From Rickettsiales bacterium (lineage in GTDB: Bacteria; Pseudomonadota; Alphaproteobacteria; Rickettsiales; SXRF01): DNA of 64,000 nt. The notes beneath the pieces were generated by a model. That model was not told the DNA's origin, did no database searches, and saw only the letters and a program-made list of their open reading frames with translations. The position numbers and the translations under genes are program-made. The stretch covers positions 1,897,679 to 1,961,678 of the forward strand of contig JAWKXN010000001.1 of the NCBI GenBank assembly GCA_041396965.1, given 5' to 3'. Shown here piece by piece: positions 2,101 to 23,694 of this stretch (position 1 is the stretch's first letter; every line of letters begins with the position of its first letter).

Positions 2101-2102
2101 AA

Positions 2103-4517: not shown

Positions 4518-4544
4518 ATTATATAGAATATATAAGGTTTAGAT

Positions 4545-5102: not shown

Positions 5103-5125
5103 ATTAGCTAATGGAGACTAAATAA

Positions 5126-7240: not shown

Positions 7241-7275
7241 GGAATTATTTACTCTGGAGTATATGGGTTGTGATG
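7190..7275 (+). repeat. ANDNY cap element, long form
   Basis: 86-nt copy with a single TAA followed by ggaattatttactctggagtatatgggttgtgatg. Confidence 0.85.
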
Positions 7276-7307
7276 AGGAAAGTAACAAAAAGAAAGTTAT
7301 AGCACAC

Positions 7308-8282
7308 ATGAAAAAAACGTTTTTTATTTTCGTAGCAATAAATATTTTTTTAGGGCTGTGTTTTTTATCCTTTCAAACATTTGCTAATAAAGTCACGGTC
7401 AGACAACTATTTATTGAGTATTATAATCCTATCAACAGAGAATATTATACGCTTCGGCAAGGATCACCTCAGTTGAAGGAAGAGCCATATAATTATATTT
7501 TGACATCGCTCAAAACTCAGTTAGTTGCTATAGATCAGGAAACAGTTGAGTATGATAATGACCAAGCAGATTATCATGTAATATTTATAGATATACCTTA
7601 TACCTATCAAAAGGAATTTAGAAATAGAAAATTTGAAGTTCCAAATATAGATCCTCCGCTTCCAAAAAATAAATATAAAGATGATAAGAATATAACATCA
7701 TACAGGTTTGTGTCTCCATGGGTACGTGGAACTATTTACATTAAGGGTAAAAAACCGATAGGTGGAACTATTATATTCCCTATCTCTAATATGCTTCGTA
7801 TGAAAGAGTTATATTATGCTTCTCATGGCGATTGGAATAAATTCTCTAAAGGTAATCCAACTAATCTAGATGATGTAACAATGTCTTATGAGAATATTTA
7901 TCAACCAGCACTAGAGAAATACATAAGAATATTCTTAGACAGCTCTAGCGGACGTCCTACAGAGGAGCAAATTGATAAAGTATTCTCTCCTGATGGTATA
8001 CAGACATTATTTTGGGCAAGAATAGCAAGATTAGCTCCTCAAACTACAATAGTTAGATTTACTGGTGGAGGGAAGATAGTAGAGTGTTTAAGAAGATCTA
8101 AGGTTTATTATATTAACATTTATAAATATATATTAGAAGAAATATTAAAAAAAAGTATTACTGAAACTGATAATAATATTATATACAGTATAACCCCACC
8201 TGTAGAATTATTGAAGTCTATACATAACTCCAGTGGTGATTACAATTGCTTTTCAAAATACATTAAGGAGACCTCAAAATGA
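7308..8282 (+). CDS. Putative immunity protein (signal peptide), ~324 aa
   Basis: I prefer the internal start MKKTFFIFVAINIFLGLCFLSFQTFA over the track start at 7224, which reads through the cap repeat. Its stop overlaps the ATG of 8279 (ATGA). Confidence 0.45.
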   Translation: MKKTFFIFVAINIFLGLCFLSFQTFANKVTVRQLFIEYYNPINREYYTLRQGSPQLKEEPYNYILTSLKTQLVAIDQETVEYDNDQADYHVIFIDIPYTYQKEFRNRKFEVPNIDPPLPKNKYKDDKNITSYRFVSPWVRGTIYIKGKKPIGGTIIFPISNMLRMKELYYASHGDWNKFSKGNPTNLDDVTMSYENIYQPALEKYIRIFLDSSSGRPTEEQIDKVFSPDGIQTLFWARIARLAPQTTIVRFTGGGKIVECLRRSKVYYINIYKYILEEILKKSITETDNNIIYSITPPVELLKSIHNSSGDYNCFSKYIKETSK

Positions 8283-9775
8283 CGATTCAAACTTTGTTAA
8301 GCAATATAATTTTTAATGGGTTTTCTTCAATAGATGAAGCGAAGGTACGCCTTGCTATAACAGATTTATATAATGTTTCAACAACTGCACGTACTATGCT
8401 AGATAAAGTGACCCCTCAACAGCAACTGACAATTAATTTTTTGTCTGGTCATTTTCAAGCACATGGAGCCGGAGCATATCAATTAGAAATTGACCCTAAT
8501 TATAACGATAAATTATTCTTCGTCACTCCAACAGGTAAAGCTATACAATACCCTCTTTCTGTTAACATAGCTCACGAGCTTGAACATGCAATAAACGGCA
8601 CCCTTGAAAACCCTAGAACAGACATTAACTTAGCTGGACCAACAGTAATTGCCACTAATGTTATTCATGACGAAATGGGAATAGCACGCAGGTTAACTTA
8701 TGAAGGAGCGGCAGATATAACAGATACCTCAGTTCAAATCAATAAGGATTATACAAATGGAACCGTGATTGATGTAGCTATAGTCATGCTAACAAGTGAA
8801 GGAACTACAAATTATGATGTTATTTCAGCTAATCATATTACAGATAGTAGAGATTTAATAATAGGTAACAATAGTACTAATTTCATATATACTGGTGATG
8901 GTGATGATTTTATATACGGTTACGGTGGAAATGATAACTTAGAAGGAGGAAATGGAAATGATTTTCTCGACGGTGGAGATGGTATAGACACGGCTGAATA
9001 TGATGGGAGTGTTGTAAGTATAGAAATAAGAGTATCATCCCCTAACTCAAGTAATCTTGGTACTATAGAGATAGATGCTGGTTCTGGGAATATTGATCAT
9101 ATAAAAAATATAGAAAGAATTAACTTGAGTGCCTTAGACAATACTATAACTGTCACTCGTAGTTCCAATATACACTATCCAAACAATATCATGATTGATG
9201 GCGGAGCTGGTGAAGACACATTGATATACGCTGGTGCAAGCGTCATAACAGCCATAAAGGAAATATCTTCTGTTAGTGAATCTGATTCACAAAATAAATT
9301 TAGAATGGAGCTTATAGGCAATATAGAAAATATTAAAGGGACATCTGGTAATGATACGTTAGGAATAGTTCTCCTGCCCACCACCAAAGTACAGAAAATC
9401 CACGCCGGTGACGGAGATGATGAGGTATCGGTGGTTGGTTCACTGGTTGCTTTCAAGCCGACGATATATCTTGAGAATGGTGATGATACTCTGGTCGCCG
9501 CTCCTCGTGGGAGTATCGTCTACGGCGGCGCAGGCGCTGACAAGTTTGAACTTGGCAGTGACTATCTGATAGCCGATGCTGACACCAGCGACACCATCAC
9601 TTACGGCGGCAGAACAATCCATGGTGGTATCAACTTCAACACCCAAGAATCCCCATGGGCGAAGGGGATTTATGGTAGTATTATTCCCGCACCCGCCCGT
9701 GGATCCGCTGCTGCAAACGATAACCCAGCCAACGACAATTACATTGACATAAATATTTATGCTAAGGTGGGTTGA
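8279..9775 (+). CDS. Orphan toxin module 4: HExxH metallopeptidase-like N-terminal domain + RTX + backbone, capped with the short ANDNY variant
   Basis: NIAHELEHAING contains HExxH. RTX repeats present (GDGDDFIYGYGGNDNLEGGNGNDFLDGGDGID). Backbone runs to ESPWAKGIYG, then SIIPAPARGSAAANDNP-ANDNYIDINIYAKVG*. Confidence 0.6.
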   Translation: MTIQTLLSNIIFNGFSSIDEAKVRLAITDLYNVSTTARTMLDKVTPQQQLTINFLSGHFQAHGAGAYQLEIDPNYNDKLFFVTPTGKAIQYPLSVNIAHELEHAINGTLENPRTDINLAGPTVIATNVIHDEMGIARRLTYEGAADITDTSVQINKDYTNGTVIDVAIVMLTSEGTTNYDVISANHITDSRDLIIGNNSTNFIYTGDGDDFIYGYGGNDNLEGGNGNDFLDGGDGIDTAEYDGSVVSIEIRVSSPNSSNLGTIEIDAGSGNIDHIKNIERINLSALDNTITVTRSSNIHYPNNIMIDGGAGEDTLIYAGASVITAIKEISSVSESDSQNKFRMELIGNIENIKGTSGNDTLGIVLLPTTKVQKIHAGDGDDEVSVVGSLVAFKPTIYLENGDDTLVAAPRGSIVYGGAGADKFELGSDYLIADADTSDTITYGGRTIHGGINFNTQESPWAKGIYGSIIPAPARGSAAANDNPANDNYIDINIYAKVG

Positions 9776-9779
9776 GATG
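9728..9779 (+). repeat. ANDNY cap element, short form
   Basis: gccaacgacaattacattgacataaatatttatgctaaggtgggttgagatg. It shares both ends with the long form and matches the minus-strand copy at 54190..54240. Confidence 0.8.
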
Positions 9780-10370
9780 CTATTAACTGAAACAAAATTA
9801 CTGCTAAAAACGGTCGCTGACTTACGGGCTAAGGGTGAGTTGGATGAGGAGAAGTGGGGAAGGATAAGTAAATATATACTAAGTTTCTATGGAGGTGTTT
9901 TTATAATAGCTTCGTCATTTATATTGTATGATTACTTTTATACAAATTTACTAATAAAGTTGCCGTTATTTGCCATAATAATGGCGTTTGTTTTTTTCTT
10001 AACGTTTATGATAATTAATAAAATATTCGTGAAAAAGGTAGTTAACTTTATATTACTATATACGATAGGTAAGAAAGCAATGGCTTCATTAATTAGGTGT
10101 GATTGGACTGAAGGTATGTACTTTGTAAAGCGATATTCTTTAGATTATTCGTACAAAAATAACATTGGAAAGATTTATATAAAGAAAAATGAAAATTGTA
10201 GTGATTTGGGCTTTTTAGGGGCAAACATCAATATATTAACATCCTTAAAAGCAGGAGACAATATTAATATTCTATATTTAGAGAAATACCCTATAACCTC
10301 TACAATTTTTGTTGAGGAGCTAAATGAAAAATATAATTTAAGGAGAGGAACTAATCATGCCACGCTATGA
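9777..10370 (+). CDS. Putative integral-membrane immunity protein
   Basis: Start taken at the conserved cap ATG (MLLTETK...). Hydrophobic segments FYGGVFIIASSFILY and LPLFAIIMAFVFFLTFMII. The 3' end overlaps the start of 10357. Confidence 0.5.
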   Translation: MLLTETKLLLKTVADLRAKGELDEEKWGRISKYILSFYGGVFIIASSFILYDYFYTNLLIKLPLFAIIMAFVFFLTFMIINKIFVKKVVNFILLYTIGKKAMASLIRCDWTEGMYFVKRYSLDYSYKNNIGKIYIKKNENCSDLGFLGANINILTSLKAGDNINILYLEKYPITSTIFVEELNEKYNLRRGTNHATL

Positions 10371-12687
10371 AGATTACGGAACTTATATTAGACGAGATGA
10401 TGCAATAGTCGGAGCTTTCGCTAGTACGATTAATCCTCTTATAGATGATTGGTTATCAAACGCTAAAGTAAAAGTGTTAGCCCAAGAGGTTGTGGAGTCA
10501 ACAAAATTTTTCTTAAAAACAGGTCTTCCTGGAGCAGTAATTGGAGCCTCAGCACAAGCTATTGATGTAACTATTAATAGCGATGGTGACATATCGCTAA
10601 TATATAATACATCAAAATTAAACGTAGGTAATATTTTAGTTGATACTGGAGCAACTTTTTTAATAGCAGCAGGTATTTTAGGTCTGTTAGCGGCGGCAGA
10701 TGTTGCGATTGGAGTTGTTGCTTTAGTAGGGGTTTCTATTGGTGCCAGTTTGTTATGGAGTGGTATAACCGGTGGATTTAATAGTGTTCAGGATATTATA
10801 ACCGATAGCAATGACATCCAAGTCCGCATATTCACGGATGGTGGCACGCATGTGGCTAGTTATATTTATCCGGAGGGGCAGGATTATCCGGACAGTCCGG
10901 CGGAAGCGGTTCAAGGGTTGTTATTTAACTTCGCCCATGCCATCCCTAACAATAACTTCACCATCAACATCAGCGGTGGCAGTGATAGCGGCGCTGAGTT
11001 TAAGATAGACTCCCAACCCTATCAGAATATCGCCGGCAGGGTTGGTGTTTCTGTGGATAATATGATGAGCGTAATCCACTCACCGGAGTATGATAACTCC
11101 AACTACACCGCCAGCAACGCCGTTATGGGTAAGGTGTATTATTACCCAACTAATTATAAACTAAAATTAGTGGTTCCAGTTGTAATTGATGGTGTTACTC
11201 AGAATATATTGGTTAATAATATTTATGATTCCACCGGCAAGATAGCGGGCATAGATTCCAGCCAGTCAACTGACTCCAACCTGATATTAGCGGCAGCCGG
11301 TAATAGCAATGTTTTTGGCACTACCGGCAAGGATTTGATATTGGGCAGTAGCGGCAATAATACCATCAACGGCATTGGTGGTAGCGATATAATCTTCGGC
11401 TATGGTGGTAACGATATAATACATGGCGGAGTTGGGGTAGATAATATATTGGTCGGCGGCAGCGGTGATGACCAGTTGTTCGGACATGGCGGCATTGGTG
11501 GAACTAGCAGCTTTTACGGAGATGGTGGTAATGACATAATAGTTGGCAGCGATGGTAACGACCTGATTCGTGGTGGCGCTGATAACGACACACTGACTGG
11601 TGGTATCGGCAACGACATTATGGATGGTGGCGCTGGTTATGACACTATTAAATACGAAGCCAGTTTTTTTGGTTTAATCGGGCGAGATATAACATTATCA
11701 GAAAGAGCGACAGTACCGGCGGTCTCTAATGCTAAAACCAGCATAGAGGTTGACTTGATGATTGACGTGGAACGGGTTGAGGCGACTTCCGCCAGCGACA
11801 ACATAGGAATAGTTCTCCTGCCCACCACCAAAGTACAGGAGATACACGCCGGTGACGGAGATGATGAGGTATCGGTGGTTGGTTCACTGGTTGCTTTCAA
11901 GCCGACGATATATCTTGAGAATGGCGACGATACTCTGCTCGCTGCCCCTCGTGGGAGTATCGTCTATGGTGGGTCTGGAGCGGATACGTTTGAGCTGGGC
12001 AGTGACTATCTGATAGCCGACGCTGACACCGGCGACACCATCACTTACGGCGGTAGAACAATCCATGGTGGGATTAACTTCAACACCCAAGAATCCCCAT
12101 GGGCAAAGGGGTTATATGGCGTACGTTACGGCAGGAACGAGGATGGTGAACTGGTAATAGTCACTCCTGACGGCAGACAGACTTTCGTTGCTAACTTCAA
12201 TTTTGACCTGGCGGGTGAGCGCACCGCCGGCTTGCTGGTTGGCGAGGGCAGTTCAGAGTTTTACCGCCTGTTGGATTCACCGAAAGGCTTTAATCTTTAT
12301 GATACTTTTGAGGCGATATTTGGCTATTACATGAAGGCGATATCTGGCATATCGTTTTTTCCGGGCATTGACCCGCTGATACTGGACATGGATGGTGACG
12401 GGGTGGAGCTTAACGCCCGTCTTGGTGTCTCACCTTTTTATGATATTGACGCTGACGGCTTTGCCGAGCAAACGGGCTGGGCACGGGGCGATGACGCTTT
12501 CCTCGTGCGTGACCTCAACGCTAACGGGATTATTGATGACGCCTCCGAGATGTTTGTATTATCCCCCGCCCCTGAGCGGGGGTCTCATCCCGTAGTCACA
12601 AAAGCCGTCAATGACAACGTAGCAACACCCACCGCCACCAACGACAATCACCTTGACTTAAGCATTAACACTGCTATTGCTAGTTAA
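10357..12687 (+). CDS. Orphan toxin module 5: glycine/alanine-rich membrane-inserting (pore-former-like) N-terminal domain + RTX + backbone truncated inside the self-processing module, ANDNY-type cap
   Basis: AGGAG SD lies upstream of the ATG. The hydrophobic stretch GATFLIAAGILGLLAAADVAIGVVALVGVSIGASLLWSGITGG is homologous to the N-terminus of 16054..23694. A long RTX block follows. Includes GIDPLILDMDGDG and ends ...IIDDASEMF + VLSPAPERGS...TNDNHLDLSINTAIAS*. Confidence 0.65.
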   Translation: MPRYEDYGTYIRRDDAIVGAFASTINPLIDDWLSNAKVKVLAQEVVESTKFFLKTGLPGAVIGASAQAIDVTINSDGDISLIYNTSKLNVGNILVDTGATFLIAAGILGLLAAADVAIGVVALVGVSIGASLLWSGITGGFNSVQDIITDSNDIQVRIFTDGGTHVASYIYPEGQDYPDSPAEAVQGLLFNFAHAIPNNNFTINISGGSDSGAEFKIDSQPYQNIAGRVGVSVDNMMSVIHSPEYDNSNYTASNAVMGKVYYYPTNYKLKLVVPVVIDGVTQNILVNNIYDSTGKIAGIDSSQSTDSNLILAAAGNSNVFGTTGKDLILGSSGNNTINGIGGSDIIFGYGGNDIIHGGVGVDNILVGGSGDDQLFGHGGIGGTSSFYGDGGNDIIVGSDGNDLIRGGADNDTLTGGIGNDIMDGGAGYDTIKYEASFFGLIGRDITLSERATVPAVSNAKTSIEVDLMIDVERVEATSASDNIGIVLLPTTKVQEIHAGDGDDEVSVVGSLVAFKPTIYLENGDDTLLAAPRGSIVYGGSGADTFELGSDYLIADADTGDTITYGGRTIHGGINFNTQESPWAKGLYGVRYGRNEDGELVIVTPDGRQTFVANFNFDLAGERTAGLLVGEGSSEFYRLLDSPKGFNLYDTFEAIFGYYMKAISGISFFPGIDPLILDMDGDGVELNARLGVSPFYDIDADGFAEQTGWARGDDAFLVRDLNANGIIDDASEMFVLSPAPERGSHPVVTKAVNDNVATPTATNDNHLDLSINTAIAS

Positions 12688-12722
12688 TAAATTATTTACT
12701 CTGGAGTATATGGGTTGAGATG
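12637..12722 (+). repeat. ANDNY cap element, long form (diverged 5' codons: TNDNHLDLSINTAIAS)
   Basis: The 3' 60 nt match the other long copies: ...gctattgctagttaataaattatttactctggagtatatgggttgagatg. Confidence 0.85.
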
Positions 12723-13226
12723 AAGAAGATACTATATTGGATAGGAAGACACTGGATATTATCACTTTTTTTATTAATTGGTAGTGTTTCTTCAGGGCTT
12801 AACTATTCTGGATTTTGTATTGAGCAGGGTAGATGGCTTAGCGATGAGGAGTTTTTATTGGCTATGTTGGGTTACACAGAAGGAGATACTATACGCAATG
12901 AAGAAAGAAAAAAATTCCTTAGAGAAAACCCTGAATGCTGCCGTTTGTACAGAGGAGATACAGGTATGGTGTCAAACATAGACTGGTTGAATAGAATAAC
13001 AGGTTCTATTTATGCATCCGGTGAAGTAGACTCTAAACTTCCTGATACAGAAATATGGTATGGAACAAACCCACCTCTAGATTACTATAGAAGATACATA
13101 ACTCTAGATACTTGCGGGAAGTCATATAGTAAATTTAGCGATAAAATTACAAAACAAGACAGTGAATTATCTTACGAAATATATTTAAGAAAGAAACAAA
13201 AAGGAGTTGCTCATGACAGTTTATAA
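12720..13226 (+). CDS. Putative immunity protein (N-terminal signal/anchor)
   Basis: Starts at the cap ATG. N-terminus has HWILSLFLLIGSVSSG. The 3' end overlaps the start of toxin module 6. Confidence 0.45.
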   Translation: MKKILYWIGRHWILSLFLLIGSVSSGLNYSGFCIEQGRWLSDEEFLLAMLGYTEGDTIRNEERKKFLRENPECCRLYRGDTGMVSNIDWLNRITGSIYASGEVDSKLPDTEIWYGTNPPLDYYRRYITLDTCGKSYSKFSDKITKQDSELSYEIYLRKKQKGVAHDSL

Positions 13227-15633
13227 TTGGAATCAGCTTGGCATTGAAGAAGTTACCAATCTCTACCTTTACGGTTCGTTAAACACTCCGGATAATTTGG
13301 CAAGCGATACATTGATTCGTCCAAAGGTAGTGCGTCAAAATGATGTTTACATGTTTGAAGACGGAACACCTCTTGCATCCATTACTTTAGATACTGTGTC
13401 CTTTATGTCCAGCGGTCCTGGATATTTTGCAAAAGCCTCTAATTCGGCATTAATTCAGCAATTTTTTAATAACACTACGTTGCTTTCTACTAGTGGTGTT
13501 CGCCAAGAATTTAGCCTCGCAATGATAAAAAGTATTCTAGGTTTAAACGATATTCAAAGTAATATTTCTATTCAACAATATGCTTATGATGTTGGAAGCG
13601 CAGATTTTTTACAAAGAAGTTATATCTATAATACTTCTGGGTTTACAATTACGGATAATCATTCTCCAGCCGATAGAAAAATTAAATTTATCATTGAAGC
13701 GGATGGTACAAGACATATACAAAATATGCGAATTCTTCCACTAAGTGATAATTTTGACTTTGACTCATCTGATAAATCAACTGTTCTTGCAAACACTGTT
13801 TTGCAGCCAAATATAGACCCCTCTAATATTGGAAGAAGAGCAAATATTATATTTGACGAAGCAAGTAAAGCCAATGTCCCACTAATAACAGACTATTATA
13901 AAGCTGATTATGATAATGATGTTGCCGCTACGAACAGCTGGTTTGATGCCGCCGCTGGTCTTGCTAAACTTTCTACACTTAGTAGTTCCCTTATTTCTGA
14001 TCTATGGGATTCTGGTGTCACTAAATTCCTTACAGCAGATAACCGCCCTATAATATATGGCACGAATGATGGAGACACATTTAATGCCAGTATATTTAAT
14101 GATTCCAGCCTTCCAACACTTGCTCCCTACGCAAAAAATGGGATTGTATTTATCGGCGGAAAAGGTGATGATACTTTCGTAAATAGCACTCATAATAGCG
14201 ATAATAATGATATATTTGATGGTGGAGAAGGTGTTGATACTGTTAAGTATAGTTCATTTTTATTTGGTAAAGATATTGCAATATCAGAACGTTCTTCCAT
14301 TCCAGAGTTGCCGAGTCCAAACGCTAGTATTAATACCAGTATAGAAGTTGACTTAATTGTTAATATAGAAAAAATAGAAGCAACCAGCAATAGCGACAAC
14401 ATAGGAATAGTTCTCCTGCCCACCACCAAAGTACAGGAGATACACGCCGGTGACGGAGATGATGAGGTATCGGTGGTTGGTTCACTGGTTGCTTTCAAGC
14501 CGACGATATATCTTGAGAATGGTGATGATACTCTGGTCGCTGCCCCTCGTGGCTCCATCGTCTATGGCGGGTCTGGAGCGGATACGTTTGAGCTGGGCAG
14601 TGACTATCTGATAGCCGACGCTGACACCAGCGACACCATCACTTACGGCGGCAGAACAATCCATGGTGGGATTAACTTCAACACCCAAGAATCACCATGG
14701 GCGAAGGGGATTTATGGCGTGCGTTACGGCCGGAATGAGGATGACGAGCTGGTTATCGTAACTCCTGATGGCAGACAGACATTCATCGCTAACTTTAACT
14801 TTGACCTAGCGGGTGAGCGCACCGCTGGCTTGCTGGTTGGCGAGGGAACGCTGGAGTTTCACCGCCTGTTGGAATCACCGAAAGGCTTTAACCTTTACGG
14901 CACGTTTGAGGCGATATTCGGCTATTACATGAAGGCGATATTCGGCATCACCTTCTTTCCGGGCATTGACCCGCTGATACTGGATATGGATGGTGACGGG
15001 GTGGAACTGAACGCCCGTCTTGGTGTCTCGCCTTTTTATGATATTGACGCTGACGGTTTCGCTGAGCAAACGGGCTGGGCACGGGGCGATGATGCTTTTC
15101 TCGTGCGTGACTTAAACGCCAACGGGATTATTGATGATGTCTCGGAGATGTTCGGCGATGTATCAACCACTGGCTTTGACGCGCTTAGAGTGCTAGATAG
15201 TAATAATGACGGGGTGATTGACGCCGCTGATAATGAGTTCTCCACCCTGCTATTATGGCAAGACGTAAATGAGAATATGCTAACAGACGCCGGTGAGCTG
15301 ACAAGCCTTAATGCCGCCGGAATTACCTCCATTGATTTAAGCAGCACGCCAAGCGGTGAGCTGGTCGCCGGTAACTATGTTGACTCTGTGGGCAGCTTCA
15401 CCCTAAGTGATGGCAGCACGCGTGAGATAGCCGACGTTACCTTCCGCGCCAATCAACGTGATACTATCTGGCTGGGTGATGATACGATAGACGCGGTGGC
15501 GGCAACCCTGCCCGAACTTAAAGGATTCGGCACACTAACCGACCTGAGAATAGCCATGACCGATAGCGCGAGCTTGAAGGGGGCAAATGATAATTACGTT
15601 GACATAAGCGTTAACACTGCTATTGCTAGTTAA
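13213..15633 (+). CDS. Orphan toxin module 6: unknown ~330-aa N-terminal domain + backbone with a complete self-processing module, ANDNY-capped
   Basis: I prefer ATG 13213 (AAGGAG 6 nt upstream) over the TTG at 13207. The backbone from HAGDGDDEVSVVG to MTDSASLKG is collinear with the main gene. It ends with G-ANDNYVDISVNTAIAS*. Confidence 0.65.
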   Translation: MTVYNWNQLGIEEVTNLYLYGSLNTPDNLASDTLIRPKVVRQNDVYMFEDGTPLASITLDTVSFMSSGPGYFAKASNSALIQQFFNNTTLLSTSGVRQEFSLAMIKSILGLNDIQSNISIQQYAYDVGSADFLQRSYIYNTSGFTITDNHSPADRKIKFIIEADGTRHIQNMRILPLSDNFDFDSSDKSTVLANTVLQPNIDPSNIGRRANIIFDEASKANVPLITDYYKADYDNDVAATNSWFDAAAGLAKLSTLSSSLISDLWDSGVTKFLTADNRPIIYGTNDGDTFNASIFNDSSLPTLAPYAKNGIVFIGGKGDDTFVNSTHNSDNNDIFDGGEGVDTVKYSSFLFGKDIAISERSSIPELPSPNASINTSIEVDLIVNIEKIEATSNSDNIGIVLLPTTKVQEIHAGDGDDEVSVVGSLVAFKPTIYLENGDDTLVAAPRGSIVYGGSGADTFELGSDYLIADADTSDTITYGGRTIHGGINFNTQESPWAKGIYGVRYGRNEDDELVIVTPDGRQTFIANFNFDLAGERTAGLLVGEGTLEFHRLLESPKGFNLYGTFEAIFGYYMKAIFGITFFPGIDPLILDMDGDGVELNARLGVSPFYDIDADGFAEQTGWARGDDAFLVRDLNANGIIDDVSEMFGDVSTTGFDALRVLDSNNDGVIDAADNEFSTLLLWQDVNENMLTDAGELTSLNAAGITSIDLSSTPSGELVAGNYVDSVGSFTLSDGSTREIADVTFRANQRDTIWLGDDTIDAVAATLPELKGFGTLTDLRIAMTDSASLKGANDNYVDISVNTAIAS
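14443..15584 (+). repeat. 1.14-kb direct repeat of main-gene segment 17356..18497 (constant offset 2913 bp)
   Basis: Collinear by eye. The last ~300 bp (about 15277..15584 vs 18190..18497) show no mismatch I could find. Confidence 0.85.
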
Positions 15634-15669
15634 TAAATTATTTACTCTAAACTGTGGATGGGTGAGATG
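15583..15669 (+). repeat. ANDNY cap element, long form
   Basis: gcaaatgataattacgttgacataagcgttaacactgctattgctagttaataaattatttactctaaactgtggatgggtgagatg. Confidence 0.85.
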
Positions 15670-15683
15670 AAAAAAGCAACAAA

Positions 15684-16061
15684 ATGGTACAGACGATGAC
15701 AGAAAAAATATTCTTGATTTCTATTCAGATTATAGGAGTCCTATTACTATTATTCTTAACTTTTTATATCCCCTATCGCTTGGCTCTTAGAAATAAAGAA
15801 AAAAGAACAATCTTTATTAAAAATGCAGTAAGAACTGAAGGGACTATAGAAGGAATAGTTTTAGCGAATATAAAGCCTATACATTTTTCCTTGAAATATT
15901 TTTTTACCGATAAGCACGGTGGAATATACAAGGGAACTGATGATATAGGGCTATCTATATTCAAATACAAAAAAGGTCAAAAAATTACTATTTATTATGA
16001 CCCTAATAAACCAGATAAAAATATTATAGAGCACAAAGGAAAGAAGGATAGTTATGTCTAA
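15684..16061 (+). CDS. Putative membrane immunity protein of the expressed toxin
   Basis: One clear TM segment (IFLISIQIIGVLLLLFLTFYIPY). Its stop overlaps the main-gene ATG by 8 nt. Confidence 0.5.
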   Translation: MVQTMTEKIFLISIQIIGVLLLLFLTFYIPYRLALRNKEKRTIFIKNAVRTEGTIEGIVLANIKPIHFSLKYFFTDKHGGIYKGTDDIGLSIFKYKKGQKITIYYDPNKPDKNIIEHKGKKDSYV

Positions 16062-19000
16062 CATATTTGGATATTATAAAGCAGAAAATATGCCTAGAGT
16101 GACAAGCAGTGGTACAATCTCTGGGTTAAATGCATATATCGCAGCATTAGAAACTGGTCTCATAGAAGTATTAGAGTATAATAAAACTTTACCGGGCATA
16201 GCTTTACGATTTGCTTTGATCGGTGATGGTATAACAGGAGCTTCGAGCCAAACCTTAAACATAATATATAATGACGATGAAACGTTTAGCATAGATGGTT
16301 ATCTTAACAATGCTAAATTTGCGCTAACTCAAACTGCTGCTTCTACCGCTATAGCTGGAGCTATATTTCTTATAACTGGCACCTCTGTCGGTATAGCCGG
16401 AGTTATCGGTATATCCGCCGCTACCTCTTTGGTGTTTTCCGTAATAGATGGTGTAACAGATAGCTTCTATGGAATGGGAAGACCAGTTAACGTTAAATTC
16501 TACGATCAGTCTGGAGAACATGTTTCTGGTTTTTTATATCCTGATGGGTTGGACGGTTCTGCCAATCAAAAAACGACTGCCGTTCGCAATTTAATTTTTG
16601 CCGCTGGTTCAGAAATAGCCAATGGCGGCACCATTGAGATTGAGACCTCATATTTTGACACATTGCTGGATAGCTCATACACTCTTTACGATGGTTCTTT
16701 TACTAATTTTATTGTAGGAGCAAGCGCCGCAACCAGCGTTACGGATTTTTTAACAACTGGTGATGGTAAAAATCTTGAAGCGCACGCCTTCGCGCCAAAT
16801 AATCCCTCAACCGCTAAAGAATATTACTTCTTTGAGGATAATGAAGTGGCTCTTGATATACCGGTATTTATTAACGGTGTTAAAGAGGTAATAACTGTCA
16901 ATAATATTTATGAAGGGAATACAAGTAACGCCCCTGATTCAATTTATATCGGAGATGGTACAGGCAAAAACTTAATAATAAACACTGGTTTCTCACCGAC
17001 TCTTGTCGGTAATGAAAATGATGATTTAATACTTGGTGGCGGTGACGCTGAGGTGTTAAACGGAAAAGAAGGAGACGATATTTTAATCGCCGGTGGTGGC
17101 AATGACTTTCTCATCGGTGGCGAAGGCAACGATTATATAGATGGTGGTGATGGAACCGATACGCTGCAATATCTTCATAGCAATAGTTTCTTTAACAGAA
17201 CAATAAATATAAAGGAAGGTGTCGGACATGTTCCTTCCTCATTATTTCGTTTTAGTGAAACAGATTCAATATTAAATGTAGAAGAAATAGATTTTGCTGA
17301 TTCAGCGGACAACATCAATATTACATTACTCGCTAACACTGCCGTTCAGAAAATCCACGCCGGTGACGGAGACGATGAGGTATCAGTTGTTGGTTCACTG
17401 GTGGGGACATTCCCGAGAATCTTCCTTGAGAATGGCGACGATACTCTGCTCGCCGCTCCTCGTGGGAGTATCGTCTATGGCGGTAGCGGTGCTGACAAGT
17501 TTGAACTTGGCAGTGACTATCTGATAGCCGACGCTGACACCAGCGACACCATCACTTACGGCGGCAGAACAATCCATGGCGGGATTAACTTCAACACCCA
17601 AGAATCGCCATGGGCAAAGGGGTTGTATGGCGTGCGTTACGGCCGGAATGACGCTGACGAGCTGGTTATCGTCACTCCTGATGGCAGACAGACTTTCGTT
17701 GCTAACTTCAATTTTGACCTGGCGGGTGAGCGCACCGCCGGCTTGCTGGTTGGCGAGGGCAGTCTGGAGTTTTACCGCCTGTTGGAATCCCCGAAAGGCT
17801 TTAATCTTTACGGCACGTTTGAGGCGATATTCGGCTATTACATGAAGGCGATATTCGGCATCACCTTCTTTCCGGGCATTGACCCGCTGATACTGGACAT
17901 GGATGGTGACGGGGTGGAACTGAACGCCCGTCTTGGTGTCTCGCCTTTTTATGATATTGACGCTGACGGATTCGCCGAGCAAACAGGCTGGGCACGGGGC
18001 GATGACGCTTTCCTCGTGCGTGACCTCAACGCTAACGGGATTATTGATGATGTCTCAGAGATGTTCGGCGATGTCACCACCACGGGCTTTGACGCGCTTA
18101 GAGTGCTAGATAGTAATAATGACGGAGTGATTGACGCCGCTGATAATGAGTTCTCCACCCTGCTATTATGGCAAGACGTAAATGAGAATATGCTAACCGA
18201 CGCCGGTGAGCTGACAAGCCTTAATGCCGCCGGAATTACCTCCATTGATTTAAGCAGCACGCCAAGCGGTGAGCTGGTCGCCGGTAACTATGTTGACTCT
18301 GTGGGCAGCTTCACCCTAAGTGATGGCAGCACGCGTGAGATAGCCGACGTTACCTTCCGCGCCAATCAACGTGATACTATCTGGCTGGGTGATGATACGA
18401 TAGACGCGGTGGCGGCAACCCTGCCCGAACTTAAAGGATTCGGCACACTAACCGACCTGAGAATAGCCATGACCGATAGCGCGAGCTTGAAGGGGGCGGT
18501 ACAGACCGCGCTTACTCAGCTGGGAACGATTGACCTTGGGGCGATGATTAGCGCGATAACTCCGGTACTTAATGAATGGCGGGACGCGGTGCCCGCTCCT
18601 GCGGACGTACCGGGTATGGTGGCGCGCTCGGATGTGCCGATTCTCGCGATAAATGATATTAACGGCGCGCAGGTGATTGATTTTGCCTATCAAGTCAGTG
18701 ACGAGCAGGGTTCGTACTGGAAGCTGGCTAGTGGTGAGGCAGTGAAGGATTCCGGCGGGGTGGTGATTGACCGTCCGCAAGTCGCTGATGTTATGGCGCA
18801 GACTCCAACAAGCGGCACGTGGCAGACATTTTCCGGTGAGCATATCCAGTTTCTGGAGCGTTATTTAAGTGTTGAGTTGCCGCTTGGGGTGGATAATTTA
18901 GCCGGCAGTACGGCGATTGCCGCCGCCGGTGATATGCTTAACGATATGTGGGATATGCTTGGTGGCATAGCGGTGCGGCTTGCGGCGCAAGGACCACTTG

Positions 19001-22000
19001 CCTCATATTTCGCCGGAGTTGAGTATAACGCCGCTGATGACCGTTTTGTGGCGACCACTGACCAATCACTAACCCCGACTATGGAAGCGATTTTCACAGC
19101 GGCTCCGGCGGGTGACGCGACAAGCTGGCTTGCCGCGTGGAAGCCGATAATCAATGTATTCCTGCAAAGCTTTGATCGTGGGAGTGACGGGCTTAAGGTG
19201 AGTTATGGTTTTCTGTTCAGTCATATCGTGGCGGCCTATGAGAATGTCGGGCTTTCGGCGACACTCACGCAAGCGGCGGATGCTTTTGACGTGCCGGTGG
19301 ATTTAATCCGCGCCAATAGTGATGACATAAACGGAGATGGCGAGGCTAACCTTATCTATCTTGGCGCGGGAGACCAGATAGCGCGCGGCGGACATGGACC
19401 GGATAATTATATTGTCGGCAGGAATTTCGGACATGACATAATAGATGACCTTGAGAACCCGTTAAATGGCAGCCCAGACTGGCTGCGTTTCGCTCATCTT
19501 AACTCTGATGAGGTGACTATGGAGCGCAGCGGGATTGACCTTATAATCAAGGTAAACGGCACTGCTGATGAGCTGAAAATAATCGGACAATTCGCTAGGC
19601 AGCTTTCCGGCTTTGGTATTGGTGGGCTGGACGCTGATCGTGGTGTACTAGAGATAATTTTCGCTAATGGTGAGGTTTGGGACAAAATTGACATAGCGAA
19701 AGCGGTAGAAAGACACACTGATGGTGATGACCTAATTATCGGTACTGATACCATAGATTTTTTTGACGGCGGACTTGGCAATGACCGGCTTATTGGTGGC
19801 GCGGAAGGTGATATTTATCAGTTCGGGCTTGGTGATGGTCAGGACATAATAGAAGATAATATGAGCTATATAACTATGGATGCTCCTGATGTAGTTGTTT
19901 TTAAGGATGGCATAACTTTTGATATGGTGTCATTTACCCGTGATGGTTACTCACAGGATCTGGTGGTCAAAATAAACGGAACTAATGATCAGATAACCAT
20001 AAAAAACCAGTTTACTGGTACTTATACTGGTGTTTATGGTTTGCATTTCCTTACTCGTATAGAAAATTTTATATTTAGTGATGGCACTAACATATCGTGG
20101 GACGATGTTCAGGACATAATCCTAGAGTCCAACCAAACGGATGGTGATGACGAGATTTACGGCTTTACCCGTACGGATATAATTGATGGTGGTGCCGGTG
20201 ATGATTTTATGTCCGGTGGTGATGAAGGCGATCTGTACATAATGGGACTTGGTTATGGGAAGGATGTTATTGAGGACGGTAGAAGTAACGTATTAAGTGG
20301 TGATAATGATACTATACAATTCTTGGAAGGAGTTAATCCTAACGAGGTTATCATGTCACGACCAACAGTTGATGACCTAAAGCTTACCCTTATAGATGGA
20401 AGTAGTGTTCTGATAAAAGGACATTTCTACAATATAGACCAATTTACTTTCAGCCAAGATCGCATAGAATATTTTACCTTTGCTGATGGAACAGAGTGGG
20501 ATTTTAACTTTATTAAGCAACGAATGCTAGAAATCAGCTCAACTGATGGTGACGATATTATTTATGGTTATTACTTTACTGATGATGTGATCAATGCCGG
20601 AGCTGGCAATGATATAGTAAATTCTTTGAGCGGCAACTCCACCATTACCGGAGGTCTGGGTGATGATCTACTTACTGGAGGAGGAGCCGATACTTACATT
20701 TATAATCAAGGTGATGGTGTTGATACCATAGATGAGGCAGTTTTTGCCGGAACTGACCAAATAATATTTAGCGGAGACGCACTTACTTCTACTAACGTCG
20801 TTCTTACTCGCTCCTCTGATTTTAACTCCGCAACGCTTACTTTTGGTGGAGTGGATGATACTATAATACTTCCTAATCAATTTTATAATTATAACGCGGG
20901 GATTGAATATATAGTATTTTCTGACGGAGTGACTTGGACTAAACGCGACCTGCAGGATAAATATCTATCAGATAACTCAACTGATGGTGATGATATTATA
21001 ACAGGATTTGGTAGTAACATAACTCATTATGAAAATGACATAATTACTGGTGGGCTTGGCAATGATCAGATGAATGGTCTAGTTGGTGACGATATTTATA
21101 TCCATAATCAGGGCGATGGTGTTGATACAATAATTGAGGATCAGTATAGTGGGAACGATACGGTAAGATTAACCGGAGCGGCTCTTACCTCAACCAATGT
21201 GACAGTTACTCGCTCCGCAGATTTTACCAGCGCTACGCTTAGCTTTGCCGGAGTATCTGATCAGATAATACTTAAAAATCAATTTGGCTCGCATGGTGCC
21301 GGTGTAGAGTATATAGAGTTTTCTGATGGCGTGACTTGGACAAAAGATGATTTACAAATAAAATATTTAAGTGACGCATCTACTGATGGAGATGACATTA
21401 TAGTTGGTTTTGGCTCCGAGTTTAATCATAGAGTAGATGATATAATTACCGGTGGGCTTGGTAATGATGTGATGGATGGTCTTAATGGTGATGATACTTA
21501 CATTTATAATCAAGGTGATGGTGTTGATGATATATATGAAGGTCTATTTAATGGATTAGACACATTAAAGTTATATGGTGATCTACTTACTATGGATAAC
21601 GCTTTAATCACCTATTCAGAAAATTATACTAAAGTGACATTAAGCTTTAATGGCATAGATGATAAAATAATCATGAGTGGAGAACAATATCCATGGCCAG
21701 GTCTAGAAAGAATAGAATTCTCTGATGGAAAAATATGGAACACACCGAACTTTTTTGGTGGTGCCGCTTATGTTGATAATCAAGAGACATTTAACGGTAC
21801 CGTAAATAATGATGTATTTATGAGCTTTGGAGCAAATGATACATTATATGGCAATGCTGGTGATGATTATTTTGAGGGTGGAGCTGGCGCGGATACGATA
21901 GATGGTGGAACTGGTGTGGATACTGTATCTTATTTTGGCTCTATTTCTGGAGTTGCCGTTAATCTTAGCACCAATGTCAATAGTGGTGGCGATGCGCAGG

Positions 22001-23694
22001 GTGACTTGCTCTATAATATTGAAAATATTATAGGTTCTAGTTTTGCTGACAATCTATCTGGTAATCCTAGTAATAATGTTATTCATGGTGGTCTAGGTAA
22101 CGATACTCTATCTGGGGCAGTTGGCAACGACACTCTATTTGGCGATGGTGGCAATGACGTTCTTGATGGCGGTGCTGGTGGTGATTACATGGATGGTGGT
22201 GCTGGTGTTGACACTGTGTCTTATGCTTCGTCTGCGGTTGTTGTTGATATAGATCTTAGCCGTACCGGTCTGCAGGGCTGGGGAGCATCTGGTGATACGA
22301 TAGTTAACGTGGAGAATATTATCGGCTCTGACTTTAGTGATCGCCTAGCAACTTCGGTGGTTGGTGGCACTATTCATGGCGGTTTGGGTAATGACATTAT
22401 CAATGGTAGAGACGGTAGTGATACTCTTTACGGCGAGGATGGCAATGATACTATCTATGCTGGTGGTGGTGATGACATTATTGATGGCGGCGCTGGCGAT
22501 GACACCATCTATAGTAATGGCGGCACTAACCTACTGATTGGTGGTGCTGGCGCGGATTACATGAATGGTTTTGGTGGAACCGCGATTGCTAGTTACGCTG
22601 ATTCAATAGCAGCAGTAAATATTATTCTCTCCACTAATGTAAATACCGGTGGTGACGCACAGGGTGATAGCCTTGTTGGCGTACCGAACATTATCGGATC
22701 AGACTTTGATGACACTATTATCGGTGATGGCTTTGCTAACAGCCTGTATGGTGGCTTGGGAGATGACTTGCTTGCCGGTAGAGGCTTTGGTGGCAACCAT
22801 ATGGATGGTGGTGATGGTGTTGACACTGTATCTTACGCTGAATCATCACAAGTGGTAAGCATCAATCTTGATAGCACTGGCTCACAAGGCTGGGGAGCGT
22901 CTGGTGATACTCTGGTCAGTATAGAAAATCTTATCGGCTCAGCTTATAATGATACTCTCGCCGCAAAAAGCAGTGGTAGTGTCATCCATGCTGGCAGCGG
23001 TAACGACACCATCAATGGTAGAGCTGGCAGTGATACTATTTATGGCGAGAATGGTAATGATACTATCTACGCGGGAGCTGGCAATGATACTGTCTATGGT
23101 GGTGCTGGCGATGACCTTATTTACAGTCAAGCTGGAGATAATCTGATAGTTGGTGGCGCGGGAGCTGATACCATTAACGGTTTTACTGGAATATCCACCG
23201 TATCTTACGCTGATTCATCTGCGGCGGTAAACATCAATCTTGCCACTAACGCCAACACAGGTGGCGACGCGCAGGGTGACGTTCTGCAAGGTGTAACTAA
23301 CATCATCGGCTCTGACTTCGCCGATAACCTCACCGGTGATTATAAAAATAATACTATAACCGGTGGCAGCGGTGTTGACACCATAACCGGTGGTAGTGGC
23401 TTTGATATATTCAAATATCTGGCAGATACCGATTCCGGCACTGGCGCGGGCAATCGTGATATAATCACTGACTTCAGCCACGCGCAAGGCGATAAGATTG
23501 ACCTGTCAGCCTTCGCCGGTGACTTCATATTCATGGGAACAAATAACTTCTCCGCCACGGCAAATGAGGTTAATTACTCACAATCCGGTGGTAACACAAT
23601 AATCGCCGTAGACTCCGACGCTAACGGACTCACCGACTTCGAGATACAACTCGCAGGGTTGCATGCGATGGTGGCTGGCGATTTCTTATTGTAG
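16054..23694 (+). CDS. Full-length 2546-aa RTX type I secretion substrate with a pore-former-like N-terminal domain, self-processing module, tandem HCBP-related repeats, a large RTX block and a C-terminal secretion signal
   Basis: The N-terminus is homologous to 10357..12687. Many GGxGxD nonapeptides. Contains [13 protein letters not shown]. The C-terminus ...[19 protein letters not shown] is typical of T1SS substrates. A hairpin terminator follows. Confidence 0.9.
   Translation: [2546 protein letters not shown]
17881..18420 (+). other. Putative Ca2+-dependent Asp-Pro self-processing module (FrpC/ApxIVA clip-and-link type)
   Basis: [17 protein letters not shown]...[40 protein letters not shown]...[23 protein letters not shown]...LWQDVNEN...[17 protein letters not shown] matches my recollection of the SPM consensus. 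Asp codon 17881, Pro codon 17884. The extent is approximate. Confidence 0.6.
19476..21750 (+). repeat. Six tandem ~125-aa haemolysin-type calcium-binding-related repeats within the main gene
   Basis: Recurrent pattern D.(I/L).F......(D/T).V...R.G.DL.I...G..D.I.I.N.F......IE.I.F(A/S)DG..W. Units 4 and 5 are the most similar pair. Confidence 0.7.
21800..23415 (+). repeat. C-terminal RTX nonapeptide region organised as alternating higher-order units
   Basis: Five units of the form VSY..S...V.(I/L)....(NVN(S/T)GGDAQGD or G.[9 protein letters not shown])...(I/V)(E/P/T)N(I/L)IGS.(F/Y).D.L, separated by GGxGxD runs. Confidence 0.75.

Follow-up and report, generated by a model that had tools for sequence, protein, structure and literature searches.

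Bacterial warfare toxins are known to keep spare cassettes, and the locus considered here follows the same logic built back-to-front, since the variable toxin domain of its RTX protein is N-terminal. The question that it raises is whether a long direct repeat could transfer a spare N-terminal domain (head) to the sole complete gene, and whether transfers of this kind have happened before; we found no earlier description of such an arrangement in the literature on the RTX/SPM toxin family. The window analysed (the whole stretch of 64,000 nucleotides) comes from a metagenome-assembled genome of a representative of Rickettsiales.

A preliminary description had proposed two collinear segments at a constant offset, with the last ~300 bp free of mismatches as judged by eye. 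Both observations proved accurate: the two copies align without gaps 2913 bp apart, 1069 of the 1142 positions match over the whole length (93.6% identity), and the mismatch-free tract measures exactly 299 bp.

14443-15584, + strand: repeat copy A (homology reaching left to 14431 in blastn)
17356-18497, + strand: repeat copy B (homology reaching left to 17344 in blastn)
15286-15584, + strand: perfect tract in copy A, encoding the C-terminal half of the self-processing module (SPM) plus ~35 residues and stopping exactly at the truncation point of orphan 6
18199-18497, + strand: perfect tract in copy B, identical to 15286-15584

The right edge of the repeat is abrupt, with identity falling from 100% to ~24% past 15584/18497, and divergence between the copies drops in the 5' to 3' direction (23.5%, 7.1%, 4.1% and 0%). 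When the 73 mismatches were permuted 20,000 times, no perfect run exceeded 183 bp. The copies share one codon phase, and their translations differ in only 14 of 380 residues. Third codon positions account for 53 of the 73 mismatches (binomial P = 8e-12), a bias indicating that the copies diverged while being translated rather than by decay in place. The 1.14-kb repeat joining a spare head to the sole complete gene for a putative secreted toxin is confirmed as real.

The repeated segment encodes a conserved linker (~175 aa) and the FrpC-type SPM (precomputed Pfam label PF26745) of a 2546-aa RTX protein, in which a domain search detected RTX and HCBP_related domains and found no CPD or MARTX repeat domains.

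16054-23694, + strand: full-length gene (2546 aa) with an N-terminal head, linker+SPM, a carrier with five HCBP_related units, RTX repeats and a C-terminal end
about 16054-17343, + strand: resident head, with a hydrophobic segment at aa 89-135 of the full-length protein
about 17884-18384, + strand: SPM of the full gene, matching the FrpC SPM (PDB 6sjw, E = 1.3e-31)
17881-17886, + strand: predicted self-cleavage Asp-Pro codons of the full gene (query residues 180-181, D-P in the FrpC SPM alignment)
47434-48864, - strand: HlyD-family membrane-fusion protein of a type I secretion system
48861-50564, - strand: ABC exporter of the same system

We consider it likely that this is a polymorphic RTX toxin locus, in which heads are swapped via linker+SPM repeats left by cassette insertion. 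The product of the full gene would presumably be exported by the type I secretion system of 47434-50564; after export, extracellular calcium would cause the SPM to fold, to cut the Asp-Pro bond and so to release the head. Six head cassettes, all of them truncated, are found upstream of the full gene; a small putative immunity gene precedes each one, and all genes of the array are on the + strand.

1-12687, + strand: cassettes 1-5 of the array
323-1414, + strand: head 1, lipase-like
2103-4487, + strand: head 2, lipase-like
5126-7240, + strand: head 3
8279-9775, + strand: head 4, with an HExxH motif
10357-12687, + strand: head 5, hydrophobic and homologous to the resident head
<1-326, 1405-2100, 4545-5102, 7224-8282 and 9759-10370, + strand: small ORFs of cassettes 1-5

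Segments of the same repeat family occur in orphans 3, 4 and 5 (660, 287 and 722 bp, respectively, 88-93% identical to the full gene), and orphan 2 holds a divergent version of the linker+SPM segment. Every cassette boundary bears a conserved element of ~73-96 nt (84-92% identity), and the boundary repeat family D3 comprises 63 nt at 90% identity; in L002, a comparable locus of another genome, the boundary motif precedes the leftmost cassette and is non-coding there. Among the small ORFs, Pfam recognised no immunity family except for one DUF3592 match. The order within a cassette would be the conserved 5' element, a small ORF for an exported or membrane protein (putative immunity), the head and linker+SPM. 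Recombination within linker+SPM would bring new cassettes into the full gene at its 5' end, each insertion leaving the previous head upstream as an orphan with a truncated module copy, and the repeat shared by orphan 6 and the full gene would be the most recent and longest insertion scar. The 5' element is entered in one common reading frame at every orphan junction, which a model of insertion purely by illegitimate joining does not explain.

The consequences of an exchange between the two copies depend on what surrounds them.

12640-12702, + strand: left-arm element upstream of cassette 6 (orphan-5 tail and conserved non-coding stretch), direct-repeat partner of 15586-15648
12720-13226, + strand: small ORF 6 (168 aa), putative immunity gene 6, overlapping the start of orphan 6 and having a hydrophobic N-terminus
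13207-15633, + strand: orphan 6, with a type-6 N-terminal head, a short RTX-like block, linker, complete SPM and a 16-codon common tail
14968-14973, + strand: predicted self-cleavage Asp-Pro codons of orphan 6 (GID|PLILDMDGDG), from the FrpC SPM 6sjw/6sjx alignment moved by the 2913-bp offset
15585-15648, + strand: common tail ('NDNYVDISVNTAIAS*') and conserved cassette 5' element with promoter-like hexamers
15684-16061, + strand: resident small ORF (125 aa), putative immunity gene, encoding a membrane protein (DUF3592, PF12158, 27.1 bits against a cut-off of 25.3)

Orphan 6 (NCBI start at ATG 13213, 806 aa; P0002) is devoid of the carrier, the RTX block and the C-terminal secretion signal. 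A structure comparison gave no significant match for its head. Nearly all homologues of this head are RTX-linked, and a type-6 head is borne by P0040, a 1137-aa RTX+SPM protein with a typical RTX C-terminus (32% identity, E = 1e-45). Small ORF 6 has no Pfam match; its immunity role is suggested by the conserved order of small ORF and head in L002 and in L001, a locus of a further genome. The resident small ORF, with a hydrophobic segment at residues 4-35, lies together with the resident head between the repeat copies. A simulated crossover behaves as had been envisaged: it deletes exactly 2913 bp, including the resident small ORF, the resident head and the segment 15585-15648, and places the orphan-6 head on the intact carrier and secretion signal in an uninterrupted ORF of 2524 aa, with the first 793 aa from orphan 6 and the last 1871 aa, including the RTX block and the C-terminus, from the full gene. 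The earlier terms 'pore-former' and 'immunity' are inferences from the hydrophobic segments, the DUF3592 membrane protein and the conserved gene order.

An in-frame repeat of 1.1 kb ending in 299 identical bases can serve as a substrate for ordinary RecA-type recombination, and heads could be swapped in this way between orphan 6 and the full gene. Head 6 would thereby gain the carrier and secretion signal, at the price of the resident immunity gene and head. No back-up for the lost immunity gene is detectable, the small ORF of cassette 5 (the nearest paralogue) showing no detectable similarity to the resident one, so the recombinant would be sensitive to the toxin of its parental siblings and harmless to them; this speaks against productive switching being frequent within a clone. 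An equal cost has been noted in Salmonella Rhs (PMC3967940). This favours the view that the repeat is a passive scar of cassette displacement, the orphans being kept for the immunity that their small ORFs confer against other strains, with switching incidental, rare and usually counter-selected. It would also fit that all six small ORFs are intact and that each cassette has its own 5' element with promoter-like hexamers, so that expression of the small ORFs need not depend on the full gene. However, the orphan heads are intact as well, recombinants of this kind have been selected in Salmonella (PMC3967940), and exchange at the locus appears to have been repeated (see below); we regard the passive scar as possible, though somewhat doubtful.

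Three findings speak for past recombination among the copies: the mosaic structure of the modules, the chimeric orphan 3 and the occurrence of the orphan-4 head type in the full gene of two other genomes. The nearest relative of the full-gene module changes along its length in the order of orphans 4, 6, 5, 6, 3/5 and 6, and the module copies display all three four-taxon partitions in a clustered distribution (P = 0.035). At 17493-17508 the full gene matches orphan 4, and at 17691-17775 it shows three differences from orphan 5 as against 11 from orphan 6. In orphan 3, the divergence of the module from the full gene changes from ~42% to 7% at ~6533. The full-length genes of L001 and L002 carry the head type of orphan 4 (HExxH), and a lipase orphan precedes them. 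Head identity between orphan 4 and L002 is 78.5%, whereas the orphan-4 module is 91.7% identical to that of the full gene in the window and only 67.7% identical to that of the L002 gene. Across the compared genomes, the small ORF always accompanies its own head type. The mosaic modules and the occupation of the main or an orphan position by the same head types, depending on the genome, imply that exchange has been repeated.

The perfect tract had been attributed to recent gene conversion. This is one possible reading, in favour of which the run is longer than in any permutation and patches have clearly been exchanged (the orphan 5-like 17691-17775 and the orphan 4-like 17493-17508); a recent duplicative cassette insertion, the divergent 5' part having been imported with the incoming head, explains the tract at least as well. 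We find it unlikely that the tract arose by recent conversion between two older, diverged copies, even though its length far exceeds the expectation from the 6.4% overall divergence. It stops exactly at the orphan-6 truncation point, towards which divergence declines monotonically, and conversion tracts have no reason to abut a junction. A perfect run abuts the junction also in L041, a 1323-bp perfect run in L063 stops ~100 bp short of the end of homology, and the repeat in L002 is likewise divergent in its 5' part and similar in its 3' part; such profiles are expected from a recent duplicative insertion with the crossover inside the module. Under the insertion scenario, the divergent 5' part probably came with the current head, the identical 3' 299 bp would be a true in-situ duplicate, and the copies would have swapped patches afterwards.

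Since the source is a metagenome-assembled genome and polishing can homogenise repeats, mis-assembly of strain variants or mis-mapping of reads might in principle have created the array or the perfect tract. This is highly improbable: the junctions are unique, with differing truncation points joined to one 5' element, which in-register joins by an assembler would not yield; clusters of copy-specific variants persist right beside the perfect tract; and the same architecture is repeated in the independent assemblies L001, L002, L041, L047 and L063, the layout of L041 being a small ORF and truncated orphan followed by a small ORF and full gene. Elsewhere, about 10 metagenomic loci have similar SPM-centred repeats: of 80 metagenomic SPM loci, 16 contain two or more SPMs in the same orientation, nine of these 16 have direct repeats with ~79-98% identity at offsets of 1.8-4 kb, and L043 adds a further case at ~72%. 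Among SPM loci of species-representative genomes, arrays were encountered in only 3 of 80.

The closest analogue appears to be the Rhs/CDI (CdiA) orphan cassette system with its polarity reversed. There, as in the rhs-main/rhs-CT-orphan locus of Salmonella LT2 (PMC3967940), one full delivery gene is accompanied by truncated spare toxin cassettes, each with a small partner gene, and the spares share a homologous stretch with the full gene (in Salmonella 522 bp at 95%, compared with 1142 bp at 93.6% here). Recombination, demonstrated experimentally over those 522 bp (PMC3967940), joins the spare toxin to the delivery part with the loss of the resident toxin/immunity pair. In contrast, the toxin here is N-terminal, the spares and putative immunity genes are upstream, and the homology is 3' of the variable part; type I secretion via a C-terminal signal is predicted instead of T5SS or T6SS, and release is predicted to occur by the calcium-triggered Asp-Pro SPM instead of from VENN/PxxxxDPxGL-demarcated domains or by Rhs aspartyl autoproteolysis.

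With the 'clip-and-link' RTX proteins FrpC/FrpA of Neisseria meningitidis and ApxIVA, the protein shares a homologous SPM (E = 1.3e-31) with Asp-Pro at its N-terminal edge, RTX repeats, type I secretion (predicted here), a variable N-terminal region and a small gene for an exported protein directly upstream; the difference between FrpA and FrpC has been reported to stem from foreign DNA at the 5' end (PMC7078468, PMC3034196). FrpC has been described as an adhesin, and FrpD, an exported protein encoded by a small gene directly upstream, binds its N-terminal part with Kd ~0.2 nM (PMC5472700, PMC5233953, PMC3034196). In the literature on these proteins we found no description of toxin/immunity roles, upstream truncated cassettes or SPM-centred direct repeats, and a sequence search detected no resemblance of the heads here to FrpC residues 1-414, the SPM alone being matched. 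The FrpC precedent, and the signal-peptide or lipoprotein-like N-termini of several small ORFs, would suit N-terminal domains that serve in adhesion or host interaction and are freed and cross-linked by the SPM, with small ORFs as FrpD-like surface anchors and the array serving adhesive or antigenic variation in the manner of silent-cassette systems. We consider this improbable, as the heads look enzymatic or membrane-active: among them is a class-3 lipase/Mbeg1-like domain with GHSLGG, the HExxH motif is conserved in three genomes, and hydrophobic hairpins are paired with membrane-protein partners. The strict pairing of head and small ORF across genomes is moreover a toxin-immunity signature.

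MARTX toxins are RTX proteins of large size with type I secretion; they liberate modular effectors by self-processing, and their effector content varies by recombination (summarised in PMC3034196). To our knowledge, neither immunity genes nor orphan arrays are associated with them. They resemble the predicted product of our locus in size, secretion, self-processing and recombining modules, but rely on a cysteine protease domain activated by inositol hexakisphosphate inside the target cell, and their effectors are internal. A likeness also exists to Neisseria pilE/pilS and Anaplasma msp2/p44, where non-expressed variable cassettes bracketed by conserved sequence lie beside one expression site; the brackets here would be the 73-96-nt 5' element and linker+SPM. 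In those systems, non-reciprocal conversion generates variation of surface antigens and leaves the donors in place. Here, by contrast, each cassette combines a partner gene with a head that resembles an enzyme, the homology arm on the left side is very short, and the favoured event would be a deletion that loses the intervening cassette.

Six ORFs lie upstream of the full-length gene, each opening with a different N-terminal domain (head), and all relevant genes of the array are on the + strand. A small ORF directly precedes each head, usually overlapping its start codon, and the N-termini of the small ORFs are signal-peptide, lipoprotein-like or transmembrane. All of these truncated head ORFs (orphans) but the first run into a truncated copy of a shared segment, orphans 2-6 keeping homology to the full gene, and a common 16-codon tail ('..ANDNYVDISVNTAIAS*') closes all six. 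At least five unrelated head types are joined to one and the same linker and self-processing module (SPM).

Features of the cassette array and the full gene.
323-1414, + strand: orphan 1, lipase-like head (GHSLGG; Lipase_3/Mbeg1-like matches), ends within the lipase domain
2103-4487, + strand: orphan 2, lipase-like head (GHSLGG; Lipase_3/Mbeg1-like matches), module ends at full-gene position 17632
5126-7240, + strand: orphan 3, unknown head type, module ends at full-gene position 18231
8279-9775, + strand: orphan 4, HExxH head, module ends at full-gene position 17630
10357-12687, + strand: orphan 5, hydrophobic head homologous to the resident head of the full gene (27% identity, E = 8e-29), module ends at 18065
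13207-15633, + strand: orphan 6, 'type 6' head, module ends at full-gene position 18497
15684-16061, + strand: resident small ORF, DUF3592 membrane protein
16054-23694, + strand: full-length gene (2546 amino acids)

Among the orphans only orphan 6 retains the whole SPM. All six are devoid of carrier, main RTX block and C-terminal end and so should not be exportable. The array may extend further left, because the window starts inside the small ORF of cassette 1. Within the visible array (its left end lies outside the window) no recombinase gene was found, every ORF of at least 120 amino acids in 1-23694 being a head or a small partner, and Rfam detected no RNA elements there; a tRNA-Met gene (60444-60520, - strand) is the sole Rfam or ARAGORN match in the window. 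Head 6 (13207-14430) represents an uncharacterised domain family that is nearly always fused to RTX sequences. Its AlphaFold2 model is confident (pLDDT 81.5, pTM 0.82) and has no significant match among solved structures, the top one being the colicin-M-like bacteriocin PaeM (E = 0.7). The motifs NFDFD and IDPSxIGR are conserved in this head.

The preliminary description had read segments 14443-15584 (orphan 6) and 17356-18497 (full gene) as a collinear repeat with a constant offset of 2913 bp and without mismatches in the last 300 bp or so. Both readings are borne out by the alignment, which is ungapped with 1069 of 1142 positions matching (93.6%) and ends in 299 identical bases (15286-15584 and 18199-18497); shuffling the 73 mismatches 20,000 times gave no perfect run longer than 183 bp. 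The homology reaches leftwards to 14431/17344 (blastn), and its right edge is abrupt, identity dropping from 100% to ~24% after 15584/18497. Along the repeat, divergence falls stepwise from 23.5% through 7.1% and 4.1% to 0%. The two copies have the same codon phase, 53 of the 73 mismatches fall in third codon positions (P = 8e-12) and merely 14 of 380 residues differ, so the copies have diverged as selected translated sequence rather than by decaying in place.

The full protein of 2546 amino acids contains ten RTX calcium-binding stretches (HemolysinCabind, E = 4e-67) and five HCBP_related units recognized by Pfam. Its SPM matches the module of FrpC (residues 415-591) with a phmmer E-value of 1.3e-31 to 6sjw_A, chain residues 1-172 of 179 being aligned, and the precomputed Pfam label PF26745 (SPM) is carried by orphans 3, 5 and 6 and by relatives. 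A predicted Asp-Pro scissile bond (GID-PLILDMDGDG) aligns with D414-P415 of FrpC (PLALDLDGDG) at the N-terminal edge of the module, and the full gene shares this site with orphans 3, 5 and 6. The SPM match and the conserved Asp-Pro together define the repeat as a ~175-residue linker, a complete SPM and ~35 more residues, with the perfect tract covering the C-terminal half of the SPM. In FrpC, calcium binding folds the module after type I export, and the module then cuts the Asp-Pro bond, leaving a reactive anhydride on the freed N-terminal fragment (PMC7078468).

Features bearing on processing and export.
17881-17886 (full gene) and 14968-14973 (orphan 6), + strand: predicted Asp-Pro cleavage site, from the FrpC SPM alignment
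47434-50564: type I ABC exporter and HlyD-family partner genes

No gene for an outer-membrane factor was identified within the window. Some 1 kb past the toxin gene, the opposite (-) strand encodes an ABC ATPase, an FtsX/MacB permease and a HlyD-family adaptor (24752-27741). These three form a MacAB-like efflux system, separate from the type I secretion genes at 47-50 kb. In P0040, a 1137-residue RTX and SPM protein with a type-6 head from a JGI metagenome, Ser-Pro replaces Asp-Pro at the scissile position ('PPASPLILDLDG'), and some SPMs of the family may thus be devoid of cleavage competence.

The perfect tract had been taken as a sign of recent gene conversion. The event is recent whatever its nature, because 99 third positions have remained unchanged, and conversion is a possible origin of the tract. 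However, the tract stops exactly at the truncation point of orphan 6 and divergence declines steadily towards it; moreover, a perfect run of 166 bp abuts the junction in the comparison locus L041, one of 1323 bp stops ~100 bp short of the homology end in L063, and L002 likewise has a 5'-divergent and 3'-similar profile. Such a polarity is to be expected after a recent duplicative insertion: the 5' part of the module would arrive, already diverged, with the incoming cassette, and a crossover within the module would leave both copies with one and the same resident 3' part. We consider a recent duplicative insertion somewhat more likely than conversion.

Three lines of evidence indicate that exchange has occurred in the history of the repeat. 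The copies are mosaics: along the module, the sequence nearest to the full-gene copy is in turn orphan 4, orphan 6, orphan 5, orphan 6, orphans 3/5 and orphan 6; at 17691-17775, for instance, the full gene differs from orphan 5 at three sites and from orphan 6 at 11. All three partitions of four sequences occur, in spatial clusters (P = 0.035; 19 informative sites only). At 15057-15171 (full-gene positions 17970-18084) orphan 6 has private variants, with 12-13 differences from every other copy over 119 bp, and the other copies agree mutually there; this cluster looks like a patch from a copy absent from the window. The shared segment of orphan 3 (6290-7192) is an unmistakable chimera with a clean recombination breakpoint, its first ~228 bp being orphan-2-like (six differences) and ~42% divergent from the full gene and the remaining copies, and the sequence from ~6533 onward being 93% identical to the full gene.

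Comparison with other genomes adds to this picture. The loci L001 (GCA_040080715.1) and L002 (GCA_021733565.1) both consist of a small ORF, a lipase orphan, a small ORF and a full-length gene with an HExxH head, that is, the head type of orphan 4 in the window. Orphan 4 and L002 have heads of 78.5% identity, yet the orphan-4 module is 91.7% identical to that of the window full gene and just 67.7% to that of L002, and this disagreement means that the modules have different histories. One head can thus be joined to differing modules, depending on the genome, and the small ORFs go with their heads across genomes (40-59% identity). A genome-contig search with a single protein found neither the same species nor a recombinant arrangement elsewhere. 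The source is a metagenome-assembled 'Rickettsiales bacterium' represented by a 2.05-Mb contig. The orphan proteins occur on one contig apiece, and no exact-protein records were found for orphans 1 and 2.

The preliminary description had further predicted that a single crossover between the copies would delete the resident small ORF and head and place head 6 with its partner before the intact carrier. In silico the geometry proved correct: exactly 2913 bp are lost, comprising the orphan 6 tail and the resident pair of small ORF and head, and the product is a single intact ORF of 2524 amino acids, the first 793 of which are those of orphan 6 and the last 1871 those of the full gene. The putative immunity gene 6 (12720-13226) remains directly upstream of the fused head 6, and the 5' element before it is 90% identical to that of the resident cassette (family D3). 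From general recombination biology and a precedent in Salmonella Rhs, a 1.1-kb in-frame direct repeat with 299 identical end bases and a spacing of 2.9 kb would be expected to recombine spontaneously at a low rate; in that precedent 522 bp at 95% identity were enough, and recombinants were selected on passage (PMC3967940). The same recombination could be open to orphans 3, 4 and 5. Being direct and 1.1 kb long, the repeats point to general homologous recombination.

A simple deletion has a cost, namely the removal of the resident partner gene. Cross-protection by the partner ORF of cassette 5 after this loss was considered and rejected, the two having no detectable similarity (E = 0.23). The Salmonella study met the same problem of partner loss and suggested an earlier duplication (PMC3967940). 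A replacement free of such loss would need the short left arm (63-96 nt, 84-92% identity) and should be rarer. The repeat is a genuine and competent recombination substrate in a cassette-switching putative toxin locus, at which switching may be ongoing.

The left border of the cassettes is formed by a conserved 5' element, observed in the following stretches.

Stretches with the 5' element.
1374-1414, 4437-4500, 7190-7260, 9725-9775, 12637-12720, 15583-15683 and 54193-54240 (the last on the - strand): element in the window
5388-5450 in L001; 2114-2195 and 5723-5770 in L002: element in relatives

Every orphan ORF reads into this element (GCNGCNAAYGAYAAT...) in one frame, giving rise to '..ANDN..*' tails despite the differing truncation points. 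At least 10 independent same-frame junctions were counted (in the window, L001, L002 and the related proteins P0011, P0014, P0027 and P0046), which is unlikely to be due to chance (about (1/3)^9). The frame may be under selection because it couples translation of the following small ORF, or the joining mechanism itself may preserve it. The tail is not a remnant of the carrier coding sequence, alignment scores being equal to those of shuffled controls, nor is it native coding sequence, as the motif that precedes the leftmost cassette of L002 is non-coding and directly follows a stop codon. Orphans 2, 4 and 5 and the L001 orphan retain more of the element ('IIPAPARGS..'). The element also contains promoter-like hexamers, TTAACA-17-TAAATT (4465-4493 and 12665-12693, with an identical sequence near 15611-15639), a second pair noticed by eye, GTTGAC-N16-CTATTG, and a AATGATAAT motif that recalls a Fur box; FrpC is iron-regulated. 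Judging from these consensus matches alone, each cassette may have its own regulated promoter.

Similar arrangements recur elsewhere. Of 80 SPM loci obtained by a pattern scan of metagenome contigs, 16 contain more than one co-oriented SPM, and nine of these 16 have SPM-centred direct repeats (~79-98% identity, offsets of 1.8-4 kb), to which L043 can be added at ~72%. In L041 and L047 the order is small ORF, truncated ORF, small ORF and full ORF, the GC contents ranging from 37 to 68%, and spare cassettes with a partner gene are present in L001, L002, L041 and L047. Among 80 loci from species representatives (Nitrospira, many Alphaproteobacteria, Nostoc, Calothrix and others) multiple SPM copies were found in three. 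Given these counts (16/80 metagenomic, 3/80 representative), arrays are a recurrent minority state, and one of seven cassettes is unusually large. In L002 genes for a serine recombinase (Resolvase and HTH_7) and a Fic-domain protein (193-1925) flank the array on the left, suggesting a mobile-element context; in L001 a gene for a membrane protein takes the place of this pair.

Rhs, CDI and Maf toxins diversify by head swapping between spares and a single delivery gene, and to our knowledge all described cases have a C-terminal toxin and downstream spares. The orphan cassettes of these systems are the closest functional analogues of the window locus: common to both are a conserved delivery region, alternative unrelated heads joined at a defined boundary, and spares with partners. 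However, the polarity is reversed. In Rhs, CDI and Maf the toxin domain is C-terminal and the immunity gene directly downstream, whereas here the head is N-terminal, spares and partner genes are upstream, and the homology tract lies 3' of the variable part. The type I secretion signal is C-terminal, hence the mirror-image layout with a variable N-terminus and upstream spares and partners. The locus works like CDI, Rhs and Maf systems, yet is not a member of those families.

Its sequence places the protein in the FrpC/ApxIVA group of clip-and-link RTX proteins. It has only HemolysinCabind and HCBP_related units by Pfam, unlike MARTX toxins with their cysteine protease domain and A/B/C repeats. 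FrpC itself has a variable N-terminal region bound by the product of the upstream frpD gene, a lipoprotein (Kd ~0.2 nM); FrpA and FrpC are said to differ by foreign DNA at the 5' end, and both have been described as adhesins of unclear role (PMC5472700, PMC5233953, PMC3034196). A 2012 survey of polymorphic toxins mentioned type I secretion only for classical RTX toxins, and a 2025 paper took toxin domains N-terminal to RTX repeats to suggest type I export (PMC12419801). In our incomplete coverage of the literature we met no account that treats SPM-RTX loci as polymorphic toxins or describes SPM-anchored upstream orphan arrays.

By analogy with the FrpC family, the full protein would be exported unfolded through the type I system, calcium would fold the SPM, and the head would be freed, possibly bearing a reactive C-terminal anhydride. 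Gene order, head motifs and the analogy with polymorphic toxins suggest a toxin function for the heads and, for the small ORFs upstream, protection of the producer and its kin. Among the pointers are the lipase and HExxH motifs, the combination of hydrophobic heads and membrane-protein partners, and pairing conserved across genomes; the labels toxin, immunity and pore-former are to be understood as putative. It is quite possible, if on balance slightly less than probable, that SPM clip-and-link RTX proteins are, as a whole or in large part, unrecognised type I-delivered polymorphic toxins of reverse polarity. An interchangeable N-terminal head would then be freed extracellularly by calcium-triggered Asp-Pro cleavage, the cognate immunity gene would lie directly upstream, displaced heads would be stored upstream as orphans, and the SPM-coding DNA would double as the recombination anchor for head exchange. 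The self-cleaving SPM would thus be a release device and a DNA homology anchor at once, and Neisseria FrpC/FrpD would represent a toxin-like head and a partner that neutralises or anchors it with high affinity. Homologues of the SPM are plentiful (13,711 clusters at 50% identity with E <= 1e-10, 22,780 with E <= 0.001) and the role of clip-and-link RTX proteins is unsettled; the array therefore leads to a specific hypothesis on that role which can be tested, the seven cassettes serving as a natural test bed. Giant SPM proteins of 3,000-7,700 amino acids (among P0143-P0288) often have their best-matching stretch near the C-terminal end, with several matched stretches reported for each, a layout unlike the head-linker-SPM-carrier order of the window.

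A second, degraded locus of the same kind (53618-56754, - strand) is located near the type I secretion genes.

Features of the degraded locus.
56281-56754, - strand: lipoprotein-like small ORF
54193-56268, - strand: 691-residue orphan (hydrophobic head, RTX repeats) closed by the same tail
53831-54089, - strand: transposase-like fragment, from translation by eye only
53618-53779, - strand: remnant of a C-terminal secretion end (53 residues; 86% DNA identity to that of the full gene)

It is adjoined by LuxR-like (52374-53129) and LuxI-like (51604-52302) genes, judged from their translations only.
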